Below, one piece after another: positions 3,501 through 43,204 of a stretch of DNA of 64,000 nucleotides. This DNA comes from a virus, in IMG/VR virus record IMGVR_UViG_3300045988_092366; one strand, given 5' to 3'. The position numbers were made by a program, and so were the translations under genes. The notes under the pieces were generated by a model. It was given only the letters and a program-made list of their open reading frames with translations, did no database searches and was not told where the DNA came from. Every line of letters starts with the position of its first letter. Position 1 is the first letter of the stretch.

Positions 3501-4214
3501 TGTATTATATAAAATTTTAGATATTTTTCTATGTATATTATATTTAAGTATGCAGCAAATGTGATTACCGTTTTTTGCCCATAAAACCATTACACCTATA
3601 AATTTTGGCCGCAAATGATTACATGTATCATGGTGCTGCTTTGGATTGCCGCGCCGTTGCTTAGAGCAACGGGCGTCAATATACTAACATTTTTGTATGT
3701 CTATTGGCGTAATGCGTATCGCTATAGTAAAATCTGTATAGTTATACCTATGAAAGTATATGGAAAATTATGCACTATTACCCATGCTCACTCTCCCCTT
3801 GCATGGAACCTATTGGATGTGCTACTTTTTCCAAGAGTATCCTATCCCCCTCTGTATGCGGTACGGTAGAGATACCGTTCGTCTCTTGTAAACTAATAAA
3901 CCAACGCAAGACCGCTTGGCTACAGAAATATTCTACTGCAAGTGAGAGTACATCCATACTTCTCACGGCAGAATAAATCTGCAACGTTTAAGACCCAGCT
4001 ATTCACCTCATTGGGGATTTTTGATTTAGGATAGTTCCTAAGCCGACTGGGAACGGCGCTATGGTTAGTTTTGTATATATTATAGCAAAAGGTTCAGCGC
4101 TTTTCAATAGCTTCGTGAAAATTTTTTAATGCCGTAATCGGAAAGTTTAAAAAGCCAATAGAAGGAATAAAGAAGAAAAGCGTTGCGTTTTATGGAATTT
4201 GAAAAATCCTCTTA

Positions 4215-4259
4215 GGTCGGTAATTTGGTATTTCAAAAAATAACTGAGGTCGGTAATTT
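4215..4259. repeat. Direct repeat aggtcggtaatttg x2
   Basis: gaggtcggtaatttggtatttc and gaggtcggtaatttgtgcagg, 31 nt apart, in the divergent non-coding region. Confidence 0.6.
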
Positions 4260-4308
4260 GTGCAGGGCGGGGCGTGCCTGGGAAAAAACAGGACGCGAAC
4301 CCGGAACG

Positions 4309-4346
4309 CCCCCCCCCATAGGGGGGGGGGCTAGCGCGCTAGCGCG
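4309..4346. repeat. Homopolymer palindrome C9-ATA-G10 followed by tandem gctagcgc x2
   Basis: acgcccccccccatagggggggggg ctagcgcgctagcgcg, inside the 1.2-kb non-coding divergent region 3431-4715. Confidence 0.7.
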
Positions 4347-4715
4347 TCAACAGTTTAGCCGCCGCGAGCGATAGCAGACAATGAGCGCGTTACTTGTAAG
4401 GTGATAGACGATAAATGTAACGTTGTATTTGTTGCGTTAGCTCATTGATTCTAAGGCGCTTATAAAGCGCCTTTTTATTTGCCGCTTTTGGTCGTGCCTA
4501 TGCGCGTAGGCATTTTACTAAATGGCACCTTGTAGGCTATTCTGTGGGCTTGCAAGGGTAAAAAATTATGAATTAGTGGTCACAACTTGATAGAGTTGTT
4601 TTTTCTGTGTATTCGCGTATTCACGCTCTCACGGTTTGACTTTTCGCTTGACTTGTATTACACTAAAGGATTAGACCAGAGACTTATGGAGGAATTGTGT
4701 GCGGCAAATTGATAC

Positions 4716-4760
4716 TTGCCAAACTAGGACGCTTACCGCATAATAATAGTTGTCCAAAGG
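4716..4760 (+). promoter_or_regulatory. Promoter TTGCCA-17-CATAAT followed by conserved transcript start AATAGTTGTCCAAAGG
   Basis: The same 17-mer TAATAGTTGTCCAAAGG and the same ggggacRgaWtggRgttagc pre-ATG box recur upstream of the 8257 gene. Confidence 0.5.
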
Positions 4761-4822
4761 CGAGGGTGCAAGGAGCTAACAAAGGGTTAGCCAGCCCGAA
4801 CGGGGACAGAATGGAGTTAGCA

Positions 4823-5293
4823 ATGTCTAACGCTCAGAACTACAACAAGGCTCTCAACCTCGCGGCTCAGTCCCACACCGACAAGTACAACACCACCAAG
4901 ACGCGCGTACTTGCCACGGGCGTTAAGCTTTCGGACGAGGCTTTCGATGCACTTTACCGCGCGGCAGTTGGCACTTCGGGTTTGATTGGTACCGCGCCTA
5001 CCGAGATTAGCGACGCTCAAGCGGATGCTCTGGACCTTCTTGTTGCGTTCCTTAATGCAAACCGTGATGAATGGTTCACGTTCTCCGATTTGTGCGGTCG
5101 TTCGGGCGCTATTAAGACTAGCAAGATTCGCGATTGGAACGGCAACACCTATACCACGCTTGATAATAAGAACACGCGCGACATTCTTAAAGAGTTCTTC
5201 GACCGTCTGATTAAGGCTAAGGTTTTTGAGGTTGATACGATGGTGTTTAAGTCGAACGGTACTAACGTTCTTTACGTTTATAAAGCTCGTTAG
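4823..5293 (+). CDS. Hypothetical protein in GC-rich island, behind a long conserved structured leader
   Basis: ORF 4697..5293. Start chosen at ATG 4823 by analogy with gttagcNcATG of the 8257 gene (ATG 4811 is the alternative). GC-rich codon usage. Confidence 0.55.
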   Translation: MSNAQNYNKALNLAAQSHTDKYNTTKTRVLATGVKLSDEAFDALYRAAVGTSGLIGTAPTEISDAQADALDLLVAFLNANRDEWFTFSDLCGRSGAIKTSKIRDWNGNTYTTLDNKNTRDILKEFFDRLIKAKVFEVDTMVFKSNGTNVLYVYKAR

Positions 5294-21083: not shown

Positions 21084-21449
21084 CTAATTAAGAATATAAT
21101 TAATAAAAGAACCATAAGGATAATATACCCAAAGAGCAATGGATGAAATTGAACAAAACAAAAGAACGAAAAATACTGTTGCACAAAACCCAGCGATAGC
21201 ACCAATTATAAAATAAAGACTTGAATCGTAGTCTTGATTTAAATCACCATTTCTTTTTTCAATTATGCCCTTTTTAATAAAAAATATCGTTAAAGTTAAA
21301 GTCAAAGCGAATAAACACCCAAATAGAATAGCCCCAAAGATATAATTTGCTGTTTCAAACTGTGCAAAGGCTGGAATCACTTCTTTGGTAACTGCATCAA
21401 CCGTAATACCAAGTTGGTTCGCAATCTCTTGAATAGCTTCTGCGTCCAT
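21084..21449 (-). CDS. Membrane protein, paralog of 20673..21065
   Basis: ATGA overlap with the RuvB-like stop; two TM segments. Confidence 0.5.
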   Translation of the reverse strand: MDAEAIQEIANQLGITVDAVTKEVIPAFAQFETANYIFGAILFGCLFALTLTLTIFFIKKGIIEKRNGDLNQDYDSSLYFIIGAIAGFCATVFFVLLFCSISSIALWVYYPYGSFINYILN

Positions 21450-23482
21450 TATTCACACTCTCCCATCATTGAACGGCCTAAATCGGTGATAACACGACCA
21501 CGCGGCTGCTTTTGAATATAACACTTAGATAACAGATAAGGCTCAATCTTCGTCTGTACAGTATCTTTATCCATACCAAGAGTAAGACAGATTGTATCTA
21601 CACCTACAGCACGAGTATTGCTGTTAAGGAAATTCATATAATCCATATCGTCTTGATTAAGACCAAACTTATTGATTCCCATCACATATAGAGCTTCATC
21701 AACGATTTCAGGATTGATTATACCATCATTCATAACCAAGGCAAAATCATATACACGGGCTACATAAGAATTGGCATTGCGCGGAATGCCGCGAGTAGTT
21801 GCCGCAATCTTATAGATACTCTTTTCATCAATCTTGATTTTCTTCTCTTGGCAAATCTTCTCTACAATAGATGCCATATCAGTTTTAGAATATGCGGCCA
21901 ATTTAATTTGAATAGGAAAACGATTCAAGAGTGCATCATTAAGACCGCCATAAAGATTAGTCGCGGCAATAAGAGTGAAATGCGGCAAACTCACCCTTGT
22001 CGCTACACCGTCTACTACCACGTCTGCTTCAAACTGTTCCATTGCGAAATAAAGAGACTCTTGCAGTCTTTGCGAAATGCGGTGTATCTCGTCGATGAAG
22101 AGAACGTCATTCTCTTTAAGATTAAGAAGAATCTCGTCAATTACTTTCTTGTCGTTAATCGCAGGACCAGAGAAAGCCTTGAACCCGTAGCCAAGCTCAT
22201 GTGCAATCACATTGGAAACTGTTGTATTGTGCGTTACAATAAAATCGTTAGTCAAATATAGGTGTTCATCATTATCAACATAGATACAAACCATTTCTTC
22301 TTTTTCTGGCATCTTTTCAATGTCTATAATAGAAATGTGATTATGACTAAAATTGTGTTTCTTAATGCCAATTGCTGATGCCATTAACATCTTTTTCCTA
22401 TTAAGTTTAAAAAGTTTTGGCTTTTCTTCATCGGAACAGCTAATTGTAATACTATAACAGATGCCAGTTTTGTATTTTTTTCTAGTATCGCTATAAATAC
22501 GCGGGCAATAAAAACCCAAAGAATTAGCTAAACGAATAACATCGTGGATAAGGTTAATATTAACAGAAGTAAAAGATACACTAGTTCTGTTATCTTTGGA
22601 TACCCTAGCATATCCGTCTGTGTCTAATAAACCCTGTAACAGATTAAGCCTTTGTTCAATGTCTCCATAAAAATATTCCTCTGGAATTCGTTTACTATGT
22701 GAATCGCAACATACTTGTTCTTCGCAAGTTGAAAATAGCTGCTTAGTCTGGACCGTTGTTACCATACAACCACTTGTAGCATTAACGCAAGGAGACTTTA
22801 GTTTAAAACACCAATTATAATTATTTTGAGTATACTTAAAAGGAACTGCTTTAAACTTTTCAGGAAGTAAACTTGCTACAATTTTTGGAATTTCATCATT
22901 TTCCGATGAAAGAGTGAGTTGGCTCTGCAAACAACATCCATCACCAAGAAAAGCTCCTACAATATACGGATGTACATTAAAGTTTTTATGAGTATATTCA
23001 ACGGCTTTTGATATAGGAACTTTGTACTTGTAGTCACGGCGACCGTTGCCTGTAATTCTATATATTCCATTGTCAATGATTTCTCGTAGCGTCATTGTCT
23101 TTAAATTATCTTTGGATGTACAATAACTCCAAAGATGTTCATCATTGCAATAAGTAGAACGTCCATCTTTAAAAGTAACCTTATAATTATCGAGTTTTCC
23201 TTGCGGGAAAACGCCCAAAACTTTCGTAGGCTTACCAAGCCTATCAAAAACATAATCTCCGACAGCAATATCGCCAAGACGCTTATCACCATCAGGCGTA
23301 GGAATAATTGTATCAACAGGTTGGGCTTTTCCGCATCCAGACTGGCCTGTGATAATCGTGTGCGGGAAAGACTCCTTCTTAATCTGCGCTGCCTTAATAT
23401 AGATTTGCAACATCTTTTGGACTTTGGGCTGTCCTTTCAAGTCTTCAATCTTACAAGGACGGAAACCGAACTCAGAAGCCAT
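21449..23482 (-). CDS. RuvB-like AAA+ ATPase interrupted by an intein in the Walker A loop
   Basis: N-extein FRPCKIEDLKGQPKV...IITGQSGCGK and C-extein TTVSNVIAHELGYGFKAFSGPAI...DVLFIDEIHRISQRLQESLYFAMEQFEADVVVDG correspond to RuvB GPPGLGKTTLA...DVLFIDEIHRL. Start trimmed to MASEFGF (RBS AAAGGA). Confidence 0.8.
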   Translation of the reverse strand: MASEFGFRPCKIEDLKGQPKVQKMLQIYIKAAQIKKESFPHTIITGQSGCGKAQPVDTIIPTPDGDKRLGDIAVGDYVFDRLGKPTKVLGVFPQGKLDNYKVTFKDGRSTYCNDEHLWSYCTSKDNLKTMTLREIIDNGIYRITGNGRRDYKYKVPISKAVEYTHKNFNVHPYIVGAFLGDGCCLQSQLTLSSENDEIPKIVASLLPEKFKAVPFKYTQNNYNWCFKLKSPCVNATSGCMVTTVQTKQLFSTCEEQVCCDSHSKRIPEEYFYGDIEQRLNLLQGLLDTDGYARVSKDNRTSVSFTSVNINLIHDVIRLANSLGFYCPRIYSDTRKKYKTGICYSITISCSDEEKPKLFKLNRKKMLMASAIGIKKHNFSHNHISIIDIEKMPEKEEMVCIYVDNDEHLYLTNDFIVTHNTTVSNVIAHELGYGFKAFSGPAINDKKVIDEILLNLKENDVLFIDEIHRISQRLQESLYFAMEQFEADVVVDGVATRVSLPHFTLIAATNLYGGLNDALLNRFPIQIKLAAYSKTDMASIVEKICQEKKIKIDEKSIYKIAATTRGIPRNANSYVARVYDFALVMNDGIINPEIVDEALYVMGINKFGLNQDDMDYMNFLNSNTRAVGVDTICLTLGMDKDTVQTKIEPYLLSKCYIQKQPRGRVITDLGRSMMGECE
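22226..23326 (-). mobile_element. Intein (367 aa) with LAGLIDADG homing-endonuclease domain, inserted between GK and TT of the P-loop
   Basis: Begins AQPVDTIIPTPDGD (Ala1, Hint block A-like) and ends FIVTHN immediately before Thr+1. Two LAGLIDADG-type motifs: IVGAFLGDGCC and LLQGLLDTDGY. Confidence 0.75.
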
Positions 23483-23547
23483 ATAAAATCCTTTCTGCTT
23501 CATTTCTTAAATATATTATATCATTTTATATGGCTTACTACAAGAAA

Positions 23548-25318: not shown

Positions 25319-25798
25319 CTATACAATCATATACTCGTCTACAAGACCCTTAGCCTTGGCGCGAGCAGGCATATAACGTCCAGCCCACATGCGGCGAATG
25401 ACATCCTCTGGAACACGCTCTACACCACCACGTTTGGCATTCTGCGGCAAAGCGATGTCAAGACCACGGTTGAAGTACACAAGGATAATCTTGTCGGCGT
25501 TCTTACCGCAATTCTCAACGGTCTTGCGAAGCGACTTCCAAGAAATATGAGTAGCATCTGCAATAACATTAATATCATTGCAAAGATTGTCGTTAATCTG
25601 ACTATAGAAACCCTTAATAACGTCACTCTCATACTTAAAGTAATCCATAGAAGGAAGAAAATCAGGGTCATTTGCCATATACTCAAAGCGAATATAATCA
25701 CGAGAAACAATTTTGGCATTAAGTTCAGCACTATGCTCATGCGCCCAAAACGACTTGCCGCAACCAGGAATTCCTGCTAGAATATAAAGATTAGCCAT
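25319..25798 (-). CDS. P-loop kinase (polynucleotide-kinase/AAA_33-like)
   Basis: MANLYILAGIPGCGKSFWA is a Walker A motif; 159 aa. Promoter TTGACT...TATAATATATTTAAAGAAAGCCAAAAGAAGGAGA upstream. Confidence 0.6.
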   Translation of the reverse strand: MANLYILAGIPGCGKSFWAHEHSAELNAKIVSRDYIRFEYMANDPDFLPSMDYFKYESDVIKGFYSQINDNLCNDINVIADATHISWKSLRKTVENCGKNADKIILVYFNRGLDIALPQNAKRGGVERVPEDVIRRMWAGRYMPARAKAKGLVDEYMIV

Positions 25799-26318: not shown

Positions 26319-26328
26319 TACGTAATGT

Positions 26329-26425
26329 ATGGAGGAAGTGACTGGTGACGCTCCAGATTCCCTACTAAGGAACACATCGCTTTCGAGGCGAGTCCGAACG
26401 CTGGTTCGATTCCACTTCCTTATGG
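26329..26425 (+). ncRNA. tRNA-like structured element (imperfect cloverleaf with canonical T-loop GGTTCGATTCC on the plus strand)
   Basis: Terminal stem AGGAAGT/ACTTCCT, D-like hairpin CTGGtgacgctCCAG, hairpins TTCCctactaaGGAA and CGCtttcgagGCG, T-loop GGTTCGATTCC. The T-stem and acceptor cannot both be made canonical. Confidence 0.45.
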
Positions 26426-26713
26426 CGGCTAACCGAAGTGCTGCCCTCCATTCCATCTCGGGAACGCACCGCTTTCTAGGCGGGCCTAGTCGCTGGACTA
26501 GTTGATTAGCCAAAGCAGGATGCGTATTCACGGCACATCCAGACTAGCTGTTTTTGGTGTTTCGGCTCACCTAATACTCCGTGAAAGCACTTGCTTATCT
26601 CCTAGCAAGAAGGCTCGCTATCCTTTCGAATAGCTGTGCGGCGTTGCCTATTCTACCGCAAAGCTGTTTTCGGCACAACTTCAAAACCACCGCCAATAGG
26701 AGCGTGGAAAACT

Positions 26714-26796
26714 CGGAGATACCGAGACTCGAACTCGGAATGGCTTTCACCACGACACCTTAGCAGGGTGCTGCGCTACCATTACGCCACATCTCC
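26714..26796 (-). tRNA. tRNA-Ser(GCU), class II
   Basis: Reverse complement GGAGATG-TG-GCG TAATGGTA GCGC-A-GCACC CTGCTAA GGTGT-(variable arm TGGTGAAAGCCA)-CCGAG TTCGAGT CTCGG-TATCTCC-G. All stems pair (one GU); anticodon GCU. Confidence 0.8.
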
Positions 26797-26907
26797 ATAT
26801 ATAAACAGCATCAGACCTCTCTCTGTCAAGTTTCGCTATAAAGAAGCGCTGCGAGTTATCATTATTCTGTATCTAATGCTGTTTTAAATAAGTAACTGCT
26901 TTTTAAA

Positions 26908-27807
26908 CTATTGGTGAGACTTTAGCCACTTCTGAACATACCAAAGCTGGCCGCATCCACCACCAATATCATCTTGACCAGCTGGGTCAAATGTCCTTAC
27001 ATTATAACCCTTTTCTAAGAACTTATTCTGAAACTTCTTAATAACATCTAAGTTTCTAAACGCCGCATCTTTCATAGTTTCATCAGATGCGCAAACTACG
27101 CTAAAAGTAAAATTAAAGATTACAGGAGAAAACAGGTCTGTAAGTTCTTTAAAGTTCTTATCTCCATTATTGGTTCCATCAATGCAGTAATTTAAGAACG
27201 GATGTCTACCAGTTTCTTTCCACCAAACAGTTCCAGCATCCCTAATCTTTTGAAGATTCATCTTCTTCTTGAATGGAATTAACACATTCCGCTCTGCATC
27301 ATTGGACTTGTGGATAGAAAATTGTAGGCCGATTTTATCTATCTTTTTAGATAAAGCAATCATCTTTGCAAAAGTTTCATCATTATCGCATCCAATAGTA
27401 GAAAGCAATAATTGAGCATTACTAAACTTTTCGTGAAGATTGATAATTGCTTTCTCAACTTCTGTCCAATTTAACATAGGCTCGCCCATGCTCATAAACA
27501 TAAACTGTAACTTTTTACACTTTTCGTTAATGTCATTAATTAAACCTTTATCAGTTAAGACAGTTACAATCTGGTCTACAATTTCATCAGCAGTAAGATT
27601 CCTAACAAACTTAGACCCCGTGCCGCAAAAACGACATCCAACAGGACAACCGCTCATAACACTACAACAAATTACAGTTCTATCATAGTAACTATTATAT
27701 TTATATAGAACCGCTTCGGCGACCATATCTTCTTTTGTAAAGACATACTTCCATACATCGCCAGAGTTTCCCTCAAAAGTCTTAAAATTCATAACCGCTA
27801 CTTTCAT
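26908..27807 (-). CDS. RlmN/Cfr-family radical SAM RNA methyltransferase (short form)
   Basis: CSVMSGCPVGCRFCGTGSKFVRNLTADEIVDQI (CxxxCxxC plus the F.RNL...EI block) and C-terminal DDIGGGCGQLW (the RlmN catalytic Cys context). Confidence 0.7.
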   Translation of the reverse strand: MKVAVMNFKTFEGNSGDVWKYVFTKEDMVAEAVLYKYNSYYDRTVICCSVMSGCPVGCRFCGTGSKFVRNLTADEIVDQIVTVLTDKGLINDINEKCKKLQFMFMSMGEPMLNWTEVEKAIINLHEKFSNAQLLLSTIGCDNDETFAKMIALSKKIDKIGLQFSIHKSNDAERNVLIPFKKKMNLQKIRDAGTVWWKETGRHPFLNYCIDGTNNGDKNFKELTDLFSPVIFNFTFSVVCASDETMKDAAFRNLDVIKKFQNKFLEKGYNVRTFDPAGQDDIGGGCGQLWYVQKWLKSHQ

Positions 27808-30398: not shown

Positions 30399-30504
30399 TA
30401 GTATGCCTTGTCTTGGGTTCGGGAGTCGGACCCGAATGCCTTGCGGCGCTATTTTTTGAGAATAGTGTGTATGCCAGTTCCACCAACCCAAGATAAGGCA
30501 TACT
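30399..30504 (-). ncRNA. 20-bp inverted repeat (19/20 match) enclosing a 66-nt loop with a T-arm-like hairpin
   Basis: agtatgccttgtcttgggtt ... aacccaagataaggcatact. Loop (minus strand) has CGGG-TCCGACT-CCCG and aaaaaatagcgccgc. Confidence 0.5.
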
Positions 30505-31578: not shown

Positions 31579-31647
31579 TTGGAGCGGCAAGACTCGAACT
31601 TGCGACACGTTGAGTTAACAACATTCTACCAACTGAATTACACTCCA
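31579..31647 (-). tRNA. tRNA-like gene (69 nt) with canonical acceptor, D and T arms but a truncated anticodon arm and a 12-13-bp extended acceptor helix
   Basis: TGGAGTG-TA-ATTC AGTTGGTA GAAT-[GTTGTTAACTCAACGTGTC]-GCAAG TTCGAGT CTTGC-CGCTCCA-A. Flanked by ttctattgga/tccaatagaa. Confidence 0.45.
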
Positions 31648-42680: not shown

Positions 42681-42955
42681 TCAATCAATGAAAGCTGGTC
42701 AGTAAGGCGCTGGGACAGTTCATCATCTTCAATATAGAAAATATCTTCCTTGTCATTTACAAGATAATTAGAGATAATCTGCCCAAAACGCTGGTCAGGG
42801 TACTGCTCCCAAAGGTCTTGAAACTTTACAAGAATATCATAGATTCTATTTACATCACGCATAATTGTTCCTTTCAAATATAAAGTCAAGAGACTCCTAC
42901 TGGTAATGCTCCAGTTTAAACGCCTTTGCAGGGCGCTGCATAACTTTTCTGCCAA
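42674..42955 (-). CDS. Hypothetical protein (93 aa)
   Basis: ORF in the tiling path. Confidence 0.45.
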   Translation of the reverse strand: MAEKLCSALQRRLNWSITSRSLLTLYLKGTIMRDVNRIYDILVKFQDLWEQYPDQRFGQIISNYLVNDKEDIFYIEDDELSQRLTDQLSLIEW

Positions 42956-43204
42956 GGAGTCTCTTGACTTTATATTTGTATTATATTATATATAAAGTCA
43001 AAAGTCAATTAAAACATTTCAAGAAATGCCTTATAGATTTCAAAACGAAACTTTTCAAAACGTGCGGCAAATGCAATATACGAATAGCCGCACATAAAAA
43101 GTACATATAGTACAAATAGACAATCTGCCATTACTACTCCCTAGAATTAAACATGAGACATGCTACAGTGTAGCCAAAAAAGAAACCAATAGCAAAACAA
43201 ATCA

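Follow-up and report, generated by a model that had tools for sequence, protein, structure and literature searches.

Tandem (8/4) tRNA-Ser units and an unclassified structured RNA in a predicted tRNA operon of a human-gut phage

Allo-tRNAs are irregular transfer RNAs (tRNAs) whose 12-bp acceptor branch is divided 8/4 or 9/3. They also have a long D stem capped by a tetraloop, a variable arm that is likewise long, a lengthened anticodon stem, and G73 or U73 (Mukai et al. 2017, NAR 45:2776, PMC5389517). Those with serine anticodons, the (8/4) tRNA-Ser, were described from bacteriophage tRNA clusters, proteobacteria and rumen Clostridia. The same account reports that 8/4 tRNAs insert serine in E. 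coli, and that some allo-tRNAs are inactive in translation. Here we analyze the stretch at positions 26321-26713 of a 64-kb viral sequence (IMG/VR record IMGVR_UViG_3300045988_092366), which we call the window and whose numbering is used throughout. Our best explanation is that a ~140-kb human-gut phage carries here the 3' portion of a polycistronic tRNA operon, encoded on the minus strand, in which two tandem units, A and B, are genuine 8/4 tRNA genes; we place the probability of this explanation as a whole at about 0.75. A further ~190 nt of the stretch correspond to a structured RNA, D-C.

Tandem units A and B

A direct repeat of 36 nt, with period 92, suggested that the stretch holds two units in tandem. 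Unit B occupies 26511-26423 on the minus strand, with the anticodon AGA at 26477-26475, and unit A occupies 26419-26330, with the anticodon CGA at 26385-26383. In unit B, the acceptor strands GGCTAATC and GGTTAGCC enclose an AA linker, the D arm CTAGTC-CAGC-GACTAG, the anticodon arm GCCCGC-CTAGAAA-GCGG(T)GC, the variable arm GTTCC-CGAGAT-GGAAT and the T arm GGAG-GGCAGCA-CTTC, and are followed by G and CCA. The corresponding parts of unit A are the acceptor strands GGAAGTGG and TCACTTCC, the AA linker, and the arms TCGAAC-CAGC-GTTCGG, ACTCGC-CTCGAAA-GCGA(T)GT, GTTCC-TTAGTAG-GGAAT and CTGG-AGCGTCA-CCAG, followed by T and CCA. In each unit the acceptor stem is 8 bp and the T stem 4 bp, the 6-bp D stem is closed by a tetraloop (CAGC or CAGT), the anticodon stem has 6 bp and one bulged U, and the variable arm is long. 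An encoded CCA ends both units, with the discriminator U73 in A and G73 in B. The unconstrained minimum-energy fold of both units on the minus strand is a complete 8/4 cloverleaf with a 3' NCCA, and the plus-strand folds are poorer.

Standard models do not recognize these units. ARAGORN makes no call within 26321-26712, neither tRNA nor transfer-messenger RNA (tmRNA), Rfam has no match there at its gathering thresholds, and the canonical tRNA model RF00005 has no match at E<=10 in 26330-26511 on either strand. Neither A nor B forms a canonical 7/5 cloverleaf with a consensus T loop that scores above threshold in ARAGORN or RF00005. An earlier note on this DNA, made from the letters alone, had described a single plus-strand domain at 26329-26425 that could not be folded as a canonical tRNA and on which no standard tRNA or tmRNA model was expected to score well; both of the latter points are borne out, and the motifs that it listed are all in the sequence. 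The domain is unit A seen in mirror image from the opposite strand, and the units number two. Its 7/7 terminal helix consists of exact complements, AGGAAGT at 26333-26339 and ACTTCCT at 26414-26420. The short perfect hairpins are likewise real: GCTAT..ATAGC is hairpin H1 of D-C (26617-26634), and CTAGT..ACTAG and CCGC..GCGG are the D arm and anticodon arm of unit B. The canonical T loop GGTTCGATTCC is present at 26403-26413 on the plus strand but is coincidental, because it is the reverse complement of the unit A acceptor end, AA linker and D stem (GG-AA-TCGAAC-C). The variable region of ~26 nt proved to be the anticodon arm together with the D arm, read in mirror image. Finally, the T stem and acceptor that had been called irreconcilable are explained by the known 8/4 architecture.

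Units A and B show every sequence-level feature of the allo-tRNAs, and hence belong to the (8/4) tRNA-Ser kind. Their 12-bp branch is divided 8/4, their D stem has 6 bp and a pyrimidine-ending tetraloop, the anticodon stem also has 6 bp, the variable arm is long, position 73 is G or U, and the anticodon is one for serine. On the basis of these features, as described in PMC5389517, we assign both to this subgroup of allo-tRNAs, with serylation and decoding as predicted properties. The resemblance extends to their occurrence in a phage tRNA cluster and to their being overlooked by standard tRNA finders. Compared by description, A and B differ from the published examples in forming a tandem pair, in their non-consensus T loops, in the bulged U of the anticodon stem and in one A34. 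They also come from the human gut, whereas the published examples come from marine macroalgal-surface phages, proteobacteria and rumen Clostridia. The arrangement is similar to that of the irregular-tRNA polycistrons (Mukai et al. 2017, Fig. 4), which are co-transcribed arrays mixing 7/5 and 8/4 irregular tRNAs. However, those arrays belong to soil Acidobacteria, are linked to toxin-antitoxin genes and carry suppressor anticodons, whereas the present one is in a phage and has serine sense anticodons.

Selenocysteine tRNA (tRNA-Sec, RF01852) has several of the same elements: its acceptor stem is extended, its D and anticodon stems each have 6 bp, its D loop has 4 nt, and its variable arm is long. 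By contrast, the anticodons of A and B (AGA and CGA) are never UCA, and their branch is 8/4 rather than 8/5 or 9/4. The tRNA-Sec model provides the sole tRNA-type match of Rfam at E<=10, at 19.1 bits (gathering score 47) on the plus strand, and it has no minus-strand score in the stretch at this threshold. A plus-strand tRNA or tRNA-Sec reading was rejected on the G-U/A-C asymmetry, the lack of CCA and the transcription context set out below. Also rejected were RNase P RNA, signal recognition particle RNA, 6S RNA, T-box elements and small ribozymes, which have no support from ARAGORN or Rfam, and standard or permuted tmRNA, for which there is neither an ARAGORN or Rfam match nor a G3-U70 pair (position 3-70 is A-U in A and C-G in B).

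By itself, folding energy is unremarkable on either strand, with z-scores of -1.2 and -2.2 for the two units and of -1.55 and -1.99 for the whole stretch, so that the case against chance is comparative. We retrieved dozens of related loci, cited here by L numbers, by means of the neighbouring radical-SAM gene and DNA patterns from IMG/VR and human-gut metagenome assemblies, mostly from sequences of ~80-150 kb. Percentages of paired helix cells were compared with slid controls. In alignment A2, which comprises 9 sequences, 29 pairs and 260 helix cells, all 260 cells pair (controls, 35-44%), and 18 of the 29 pairs change on both sides. On the minus strand 27 of the 260 cells are G-U, and these would be A-C mismatches on the plus strand. 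With 14 sequences, including three lineages outside model building, pairing is complete over 403 cells and covariation extends to 22 of the 29 pairs; this alignment leans towards the structure because it was fitted to the model.

Compensatory changes are found throughout the cloverleaf. In unit A of L014, L008 and L042, the acceptor strands GGAAGTGG/TCACTTCC are replaced by GGAAGCAG/CTGCTTCT and by GGAGTGGG/TCCACTCT, the T stem CTGG/CCAG by GGGT/ACTC, and the variable arm GTTCC/GGAAT by GTCCC/GGGAT with a shorter loop. The acceptor of unit B changes from GGCTAATC/GGTTAGCC to GGCTAGTC/GGCTAGCC. The 8 + 4 pairs of the acceptor branch form in all sequences, with compensatory changes in 6 of the 8 acceptor pairs and all 4 T-stem pairs, and acceptor pair 8 is seen as CG, GU, GC and UA. 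Between 5 and 6 of the 6 D-stem pairs covary; L039 has 5 bp and a 5-nt loop, and L043 fits either 5 bp with 5 nt or 6 bp with 3 nt. The variable arm has a stem of 5-7 bp and a loop of 4-7 nt across members, and the outer pair of the anticodon stem covaries between AU and GC. The discriminator of B is G, as it is in L039 and L043; that of L047 is U, and A carries U in the window and G in L014 and L008. In the anticodon, GA occupies positions 35-36 without exception. Position 34 varies: A in B, C in A, and U in A of L018 and L025 and also in L043. All of these variants still specify serine, as expected of a serine anticodon.

A covariance model, R1, was built from the sequences of the nine-member alignment. 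Over the window, it matches only A (98.5 bits) and B (99.6 bits). Outside the building set it matches L039, a GC-rich phage contig from another sample that has a canonical TTCGATT T loop (72.8 bits), and a Deltaproteobacteria metagenome-assembled genome (MAG; 61.7 bits). L043, a 173-kb contig found by pattern scan, represents a further lineage and was itself used in building R1.

Several observations weigh against units A and B being functional tRNA genes. Their T loops, AGCGUCA in A and GGCAGCA in B, are non-consensus and lack T-Psi-C, with C56 and A60 retained. There is no linker nucleotide between the D and anticodon stems, nor between the variable and T arms, and the anticodon of unit B has A34, which is unusual in bacteria. 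The homologues are mostly close relatives with 85-99% identity, and many covarying cells are therefore inherited rather than independent events. The percentage paired is also inflated, because we chose the sequences and derived the structure from the same sequences. Damaged copies are found in some relatives, namely a B/A chimera in L040 and a B split by an insertion in L092, and the A and B genes are therefore dispensable.

Operon context and rival readings

All seven tRNAs that ARAGORN calls in the window are on the minus strand, as are the genes that flank the stretch. The nearest, just outside the stretch, is a canonical tRNA-Ser(GCU) at 26797-26713 (Rfam tRNA, 57.1 bits), which would be the first gene of the operon. 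It is followed on the minus strand by D-C (26706-26518), B and A, and then by an intrinsic terminator at 26321-26283 with a 14-bp stem and T7, which is also conserved in relatives. Directly after it, at 26281-26252 and also on the minus strand, is a sigma-70-type promoter of the next gene (TTGACA, 18 nt, TATAAT), which matches the consensus at all 12 positions. The gene immediately upstream of the array encodes an RlmN/Cfr-like radical-SAM protein (26908-27807, minus strand; TIGR00048, 113 bits, below cutoff), possibly an enzyme that methylates A in tRNA or rRNA.

The order tRNA-Ser(GCU), D-C, (8/4) tRNA-Ser(AGA), (8/4) tRNA-Ser(CGA), terminator suggests how the operon might work. RNase P and 3' processing enzymes would cleave the primary transcript where the tRNAs end. 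Host seryl-tRNA synthetase (SerRS) would charge A and B by way of the long variable arm and G73 or U73, and the two tRNAs would decode UCN serine codons for the phage, leaving AGY to the GCU tRNA. D-C would be set free as a stable structured RNA. Among the serine codons of the window, TCT accounts for 29% (UCU is the commonest), AGY for 44% and TCG for 6%; A and B, together with tRNA-Ser(GCU), would thus cover the most-used ones.

The stretch is non-coding, because relatives vary in it by 1-2-nt insertions or deletions and by entire modules, and because the four overlapping open reading frames (ORFs) that were scanned (52-72 amino acids) have no Pfam match. The statement in the earlier note that it contains no ORF is inexact, since mechanical ORFs of 34-83 amino acids overlap it, but the view that the remainder is non-coding and structured is sustained.

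The alternative that we take most seriously, although we consider it improbable, retains the strand and the 8/4 fold and assigns A and B a non-translational role. As tRNA-like decoys or substrates, they might for instance bait host anticodon nucleases or tRNA-modifying enzymes, or be specific substrates of a kinase related to the seryl-tRNA(Sec) kinase PSTK. The non-canonical T loops fit such a role, as do the YGAAA-type loops that recur in modules D, C, E and F (see below) besides the true anticodon loops, and the allo-tRNAs reported to be inactive in translation. Directly 3' of the operon, moreover, is a gene for a 159-amino-acid P-loop kinase (25319-25798, minus strand) whose top-scoring PDB entry is L-seryl-tRNA(Sec) kinase (3a4l, E = 1.2e-8), with the polynucleotide kinases Pnkp1 and T4 PNK behind it (0.005-0.009), and whose sole NCBIfam match is selen_PSTK. 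However, that match reaches 55 bits, far under the cutoff of 290.5, the protein lacks the C-terminal tRNA-binding domain of PSTK, and it fits the polynucleotide kinase family PHROG 505 better (66 bits). The kinase was not found in the flanks of the independent 8/4 tRNAs of L039, L043 and L047. A functional link between Sec-like 8/4 tRNAs and an adjacent PSTK-like kinase is a bolder reading, and we note the adjacency without relying on it. Anticodons that vary within serine only, together with the retention of all SerRS identity features and of CCA, are what decoding tRNAs would be expected to show. Decay is considerably less probable still: A and B might be pseudogenes left over from duplicated tRNA genes, in a recombination-prone and highly plastic array where modules come and go, fuse or are interrupted, and in which module E resembles a decayed copy of D. 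Against this, all helix cells pair, with many compensatory changes, in lineages as distant as L039 and L047, and the anticodon loop and CCA are conserved.

Two further readings are, in our estimate, very improbable. The earlier note favoured a plus-strand tRNA mimic like YrlA or other Y RNAs, in which a Ro-binding stem made by the two ends (5' and 3') accompanies a tRNA-like domain, and GGTTCGATTCC, the 7-bp terminal helix and the weak tRNA-Sec match are indeed on that strand. Yet the fold is worse there, the 27 G-U cells of A2 become A-C mismatches, no NCCA is present, and the plus strand is antisense to a transcription unit whose terminator and following promoter are on the minus strand. No Y-RNA model matches the stretch in Rfam at E<=10; the sole Y-RNA match, Deinococcus_Y_RNA at 26.3 bits (gathering score 80), is at 26719-26753, outside the stretch, on the T arm of the ordinary tRNA-Ser. 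A single large RNA spanning all 390 nt (a tmRNA, RNase P RNA or T-box-type leader, for instance) is equally hard to defend. Minimum-energy folding of the full stretch does yield a long-range helix of CCTATTGGCGG with CCGCCATAAGG, and in phages without A and B a T-run and a gene come after hairpin H4 of D-C. This helix, however, shows no covariation, and its 5' arm instead forms a covarying hairpin (a') and a kissing loop, by which it was supplanted. The modules also occur apart in relatives, ARAGORN finds no tmRNA, a G3-U70 pair is absent, and Rfam at E<=10 matches none of its tmRNA, RNase P and T-box models. Two tandem minus-strand (8/4) tRNA-Ser genes remain our preferred explanation.

The D-C structured RNA

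D-C consists of module D (26706-26637) and module C (26636-26518), and its covariance model, R2, scores 230 bits over 26510-26706. In alignment A4, which contains 17 distinct D-C sequences, 99.3% of the 951 cells of ten helices pair (slid controls, 33-45%), and 10 of 56 pairs show double changes. D-C follows tRNA-Ser(GCU) in every inspected locus with an intact upstream region, in two genomic contexts. Rfam at E<=10 has no D-C match in the window or in L062, including the T-box leader model RF00230, which we had considered. A search of GenBank phages with the stretch matched the ordinary tRNA-Ser alone and not D-C, and the literature on stable RNAs in phage tRNA clusters yielded nothing useful for D-C. 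We regard D-C as a real, unclassified structured RNA.

Module D has three hairpins. Hairpin a' (26704-26691; CGCT/GGCG) has two covarying pairs, one seen as CG (9) and UA (7) and the second as CG, UG and GC. Its loop, CCTATT (26700-26695), is complementary to AATAGG (26652-26647) in the loop of hairpin c, and a U-A pair of this kissing interaction becomes A-U in L062 and L064. Hairpin b (26681-26661; AAGTTGT-GCCGAAA-ACAGCTT) has 7 bp and a 7-nt loop, with compensatory changes in 4 of the 7 pairs. Hairpin c (26660-26637; TGCGG..CCGCA), predicted by RNAalifold, has a 14-nt loop that holds AATAGG, and its stem is invariant and so yields no covariation evidence. An armless mini-tRNA beginning at GGCGGTGG was dropped as an interpretation of module D when CCTATT turned out to be part of D.

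In module C, hairpin H1 (26634-26617; GCTAT..ATAGC) has a GNRA tetraloop, GAAA in the window and GAGA in most relatives, with one covarying pair and one G-U to A-U change. H2 with its extension (26615-26586) has the invariant loop AGGAGAUA, and its pair 104-119 is seen as UA, CG, AU and UG. A putative pseudoknot of 7 complementary bases would join TTCACGG (26585-26579) to CCGTGAA (26533-26527) in the loop of H4; it is invariant except for one G-U, and we infer it from conservation without covariation. A helix predicted by RNAalifold, GTGG/TCAC, competes with this pseudoknot; it is invariant, and is broken in L061. H3 (26571-26556; GGTG-AGCCGAAA-CACC) is weakly supported, with a stem that is invariant except for one G-U. 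H4 (26540-26518; GGATGTG-CCGTGAATA-CGCATCC) shows a compensatory change from A-U to G-C in L037 and L042. In phages without A and B (L061-L073), H4 has a terminator-like placement: a T-run comes next, and after it a gene for a small membrane protein. Because it precedes B in the window and a T-run in those phages, H4 is argued to be primarily a structural element.

Two other ideas about module C were abandoned. A mini-ORF after AGGAG (GTG CTT TCA CGG AGT ATT AGG TGA) might have encoded a leader peptide or a tmRNA-like tag, and was rejected on its codon pattern. Codons 1-5 are invariant in all inspected sequences, some of which were retrieved with a pattern spanning them, and codons 6-7 vary non-synonymously, which suggests conservation of RNA rather than of a coding sequence. 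Pairing of the H2 loop GGAGATA with the 3' strand of tRNA-Ser is not general, as the acceptor sequences differ among relatives.

Phage T4 carries, in its tRNA cluster, the stable RNAs species 1 and 2, which are structured, are not tRNAs, and are presumably freed by tRNA processing. D-C is similar in being a structured non-tRNA RNA inside a phage tRNA operon, and the likeness is one of analogy only. D-C is probably set free by tRNA processing. Module D, with its three hairpins and 6-bp loop-loop kiss, resembles a tRNA body minus the acceptor stem, and its 'anticodon-like' loop holds CGAAA. D-C could be a mimic of an anticodon arm or tRNA body that titrates a host or phage tRNA-binding factor. 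It may represent a class of structured phage RNA that has not been described before and that is linked in function to serine tRNAs; this is a tentative proposal, which we think has clearly less than an even chance of being correct.

Array plasticity and further irregular tRNAs

The order of modules differs among loci: D-C-B-A in the window, D-B-A in L027, D-E-A in several loci, D-E-C-B in L041, and D-C alone in another phage group. A, B and D-C are found independently of one another in relatives. Module E (L001, L005 and others) is a 59-nt degenerate copy of D. Module F, which follows module C in L062, L096 and L099, has a helix CCAAGAC..GTCTTGG and a hairpin with the loop CGCCCGAAAT. CCGAAA-type loops are present in E and F, as they are in D, in H3 of C and in true anticodon loops. 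The chimera of L040 (7818-7907) joins B and A at their common GTTCC, an insertion splits unit B in L092, and a deletion in L082 has joined the radical-SAM gene to a point midway through module D. The tRNA array is a recombination hot spot.

The slot occupied in the window by tRNA-Ser(GCU) at 26713-26797 holds irregular Ser(GCU) tRNAs in L003, L011, L014, L021 and L061-L073. In these, for example GGGGCAGACAACTAACGGGGAGTTAGG...GCCA and GGAGTAGATAACCAGCGGGGAGCTGGG...GCCA, the D arm is preceded by an additional spacer, the variable arm has 7 bp and the T loops are odd. They go uncalled by ARAGORN in the loci scanned with it (L003, L011, L014 and L021), and Rfam finds no tRNA there in L062, the single locus to which it was applied; another, at L084 271-360, scores 47 bits with the 8/4 model. 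In L007 and L022 (~4670-5185), a 5' fragment of a canonical tRNA-Ser is followed by an insert of ~514 nt with a small ORF, and then by an irregular tRNA-Ser. Judged by eye, the ORF product is possibly a PD-(D/E)XK-type homing endonuclease, and the arrangement looks like endonuclease-mediated replacement. In cyanobacterial Hormoscilla MAGs (L049, L054 and L060), CCGCCUCGAAAGCGGUGCGUUCC, which corresponds to the anticodon arm and the start of the variable arm, occurs inside elements of ~85 nt whose fit to the 8/4 model is poor (15-22 bits). These elements may be another kind of irregular Ser(CGA) tRNA.

Within the window, the tRNA finders disagree at three other minus-strand positions, and further irregular tRNAs may therefore be present. 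A tRNA at 31579-31647 is called by Rfam and not by ARAGORN, and the tRNA-Leu(CAA) at 30410-30492 and tRNA-Cys(GCA) at 42890-42961 of ARAGORN are below the Rfam gathering score. TGA is a rare stop among the 44 long minus-strand ORFs, which end in TGA (2), TAA (28) or TAG (14), and no suppressor tRNA was seen. On the plus strand, ~700 nt at 3985-4696 have no ORF of at least 50 amino acids. This region contains a C9-ATA-G10 hairpin, more GC-rich hairpins, and a terminator-like AAGGCGC..GCGCCTT followed by a T-run. It also includes the one extra match of R2 in the window (4309-4482, plus strand), a weak one of 18 bits that arises from hairpins and a terminator. A 684-amino-acid RuvB/AAA-like ATPase is encoded at 21449-23503 on the minus strand, with an apparent intein-like insert after Walker A, as judged from the translation.

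D-C adds a well-supported structured RNA that has no family assignment in Rfam, and the strict linkage of D-C to tRNA-Ser(GCU) offers an experimental way to its function. Units A and B widen the range of (8/4) tRNA-Ser to abundant ~140-kb human-gut phages, and the covariance model and natural variants reported here are supplied for a scaffold that is employed in genetic-code expansion. Of the three serine tRNAs of this phage, standard annotation (ARAGORN and the tRNA model of Rfam) overlooks two, and it overlooks the irregular tRNA-Ser(GCU) of relatives as well, so that the tRNA complements of gut phages, and the analyses of codon adaptation that draw on them, are undercounted.

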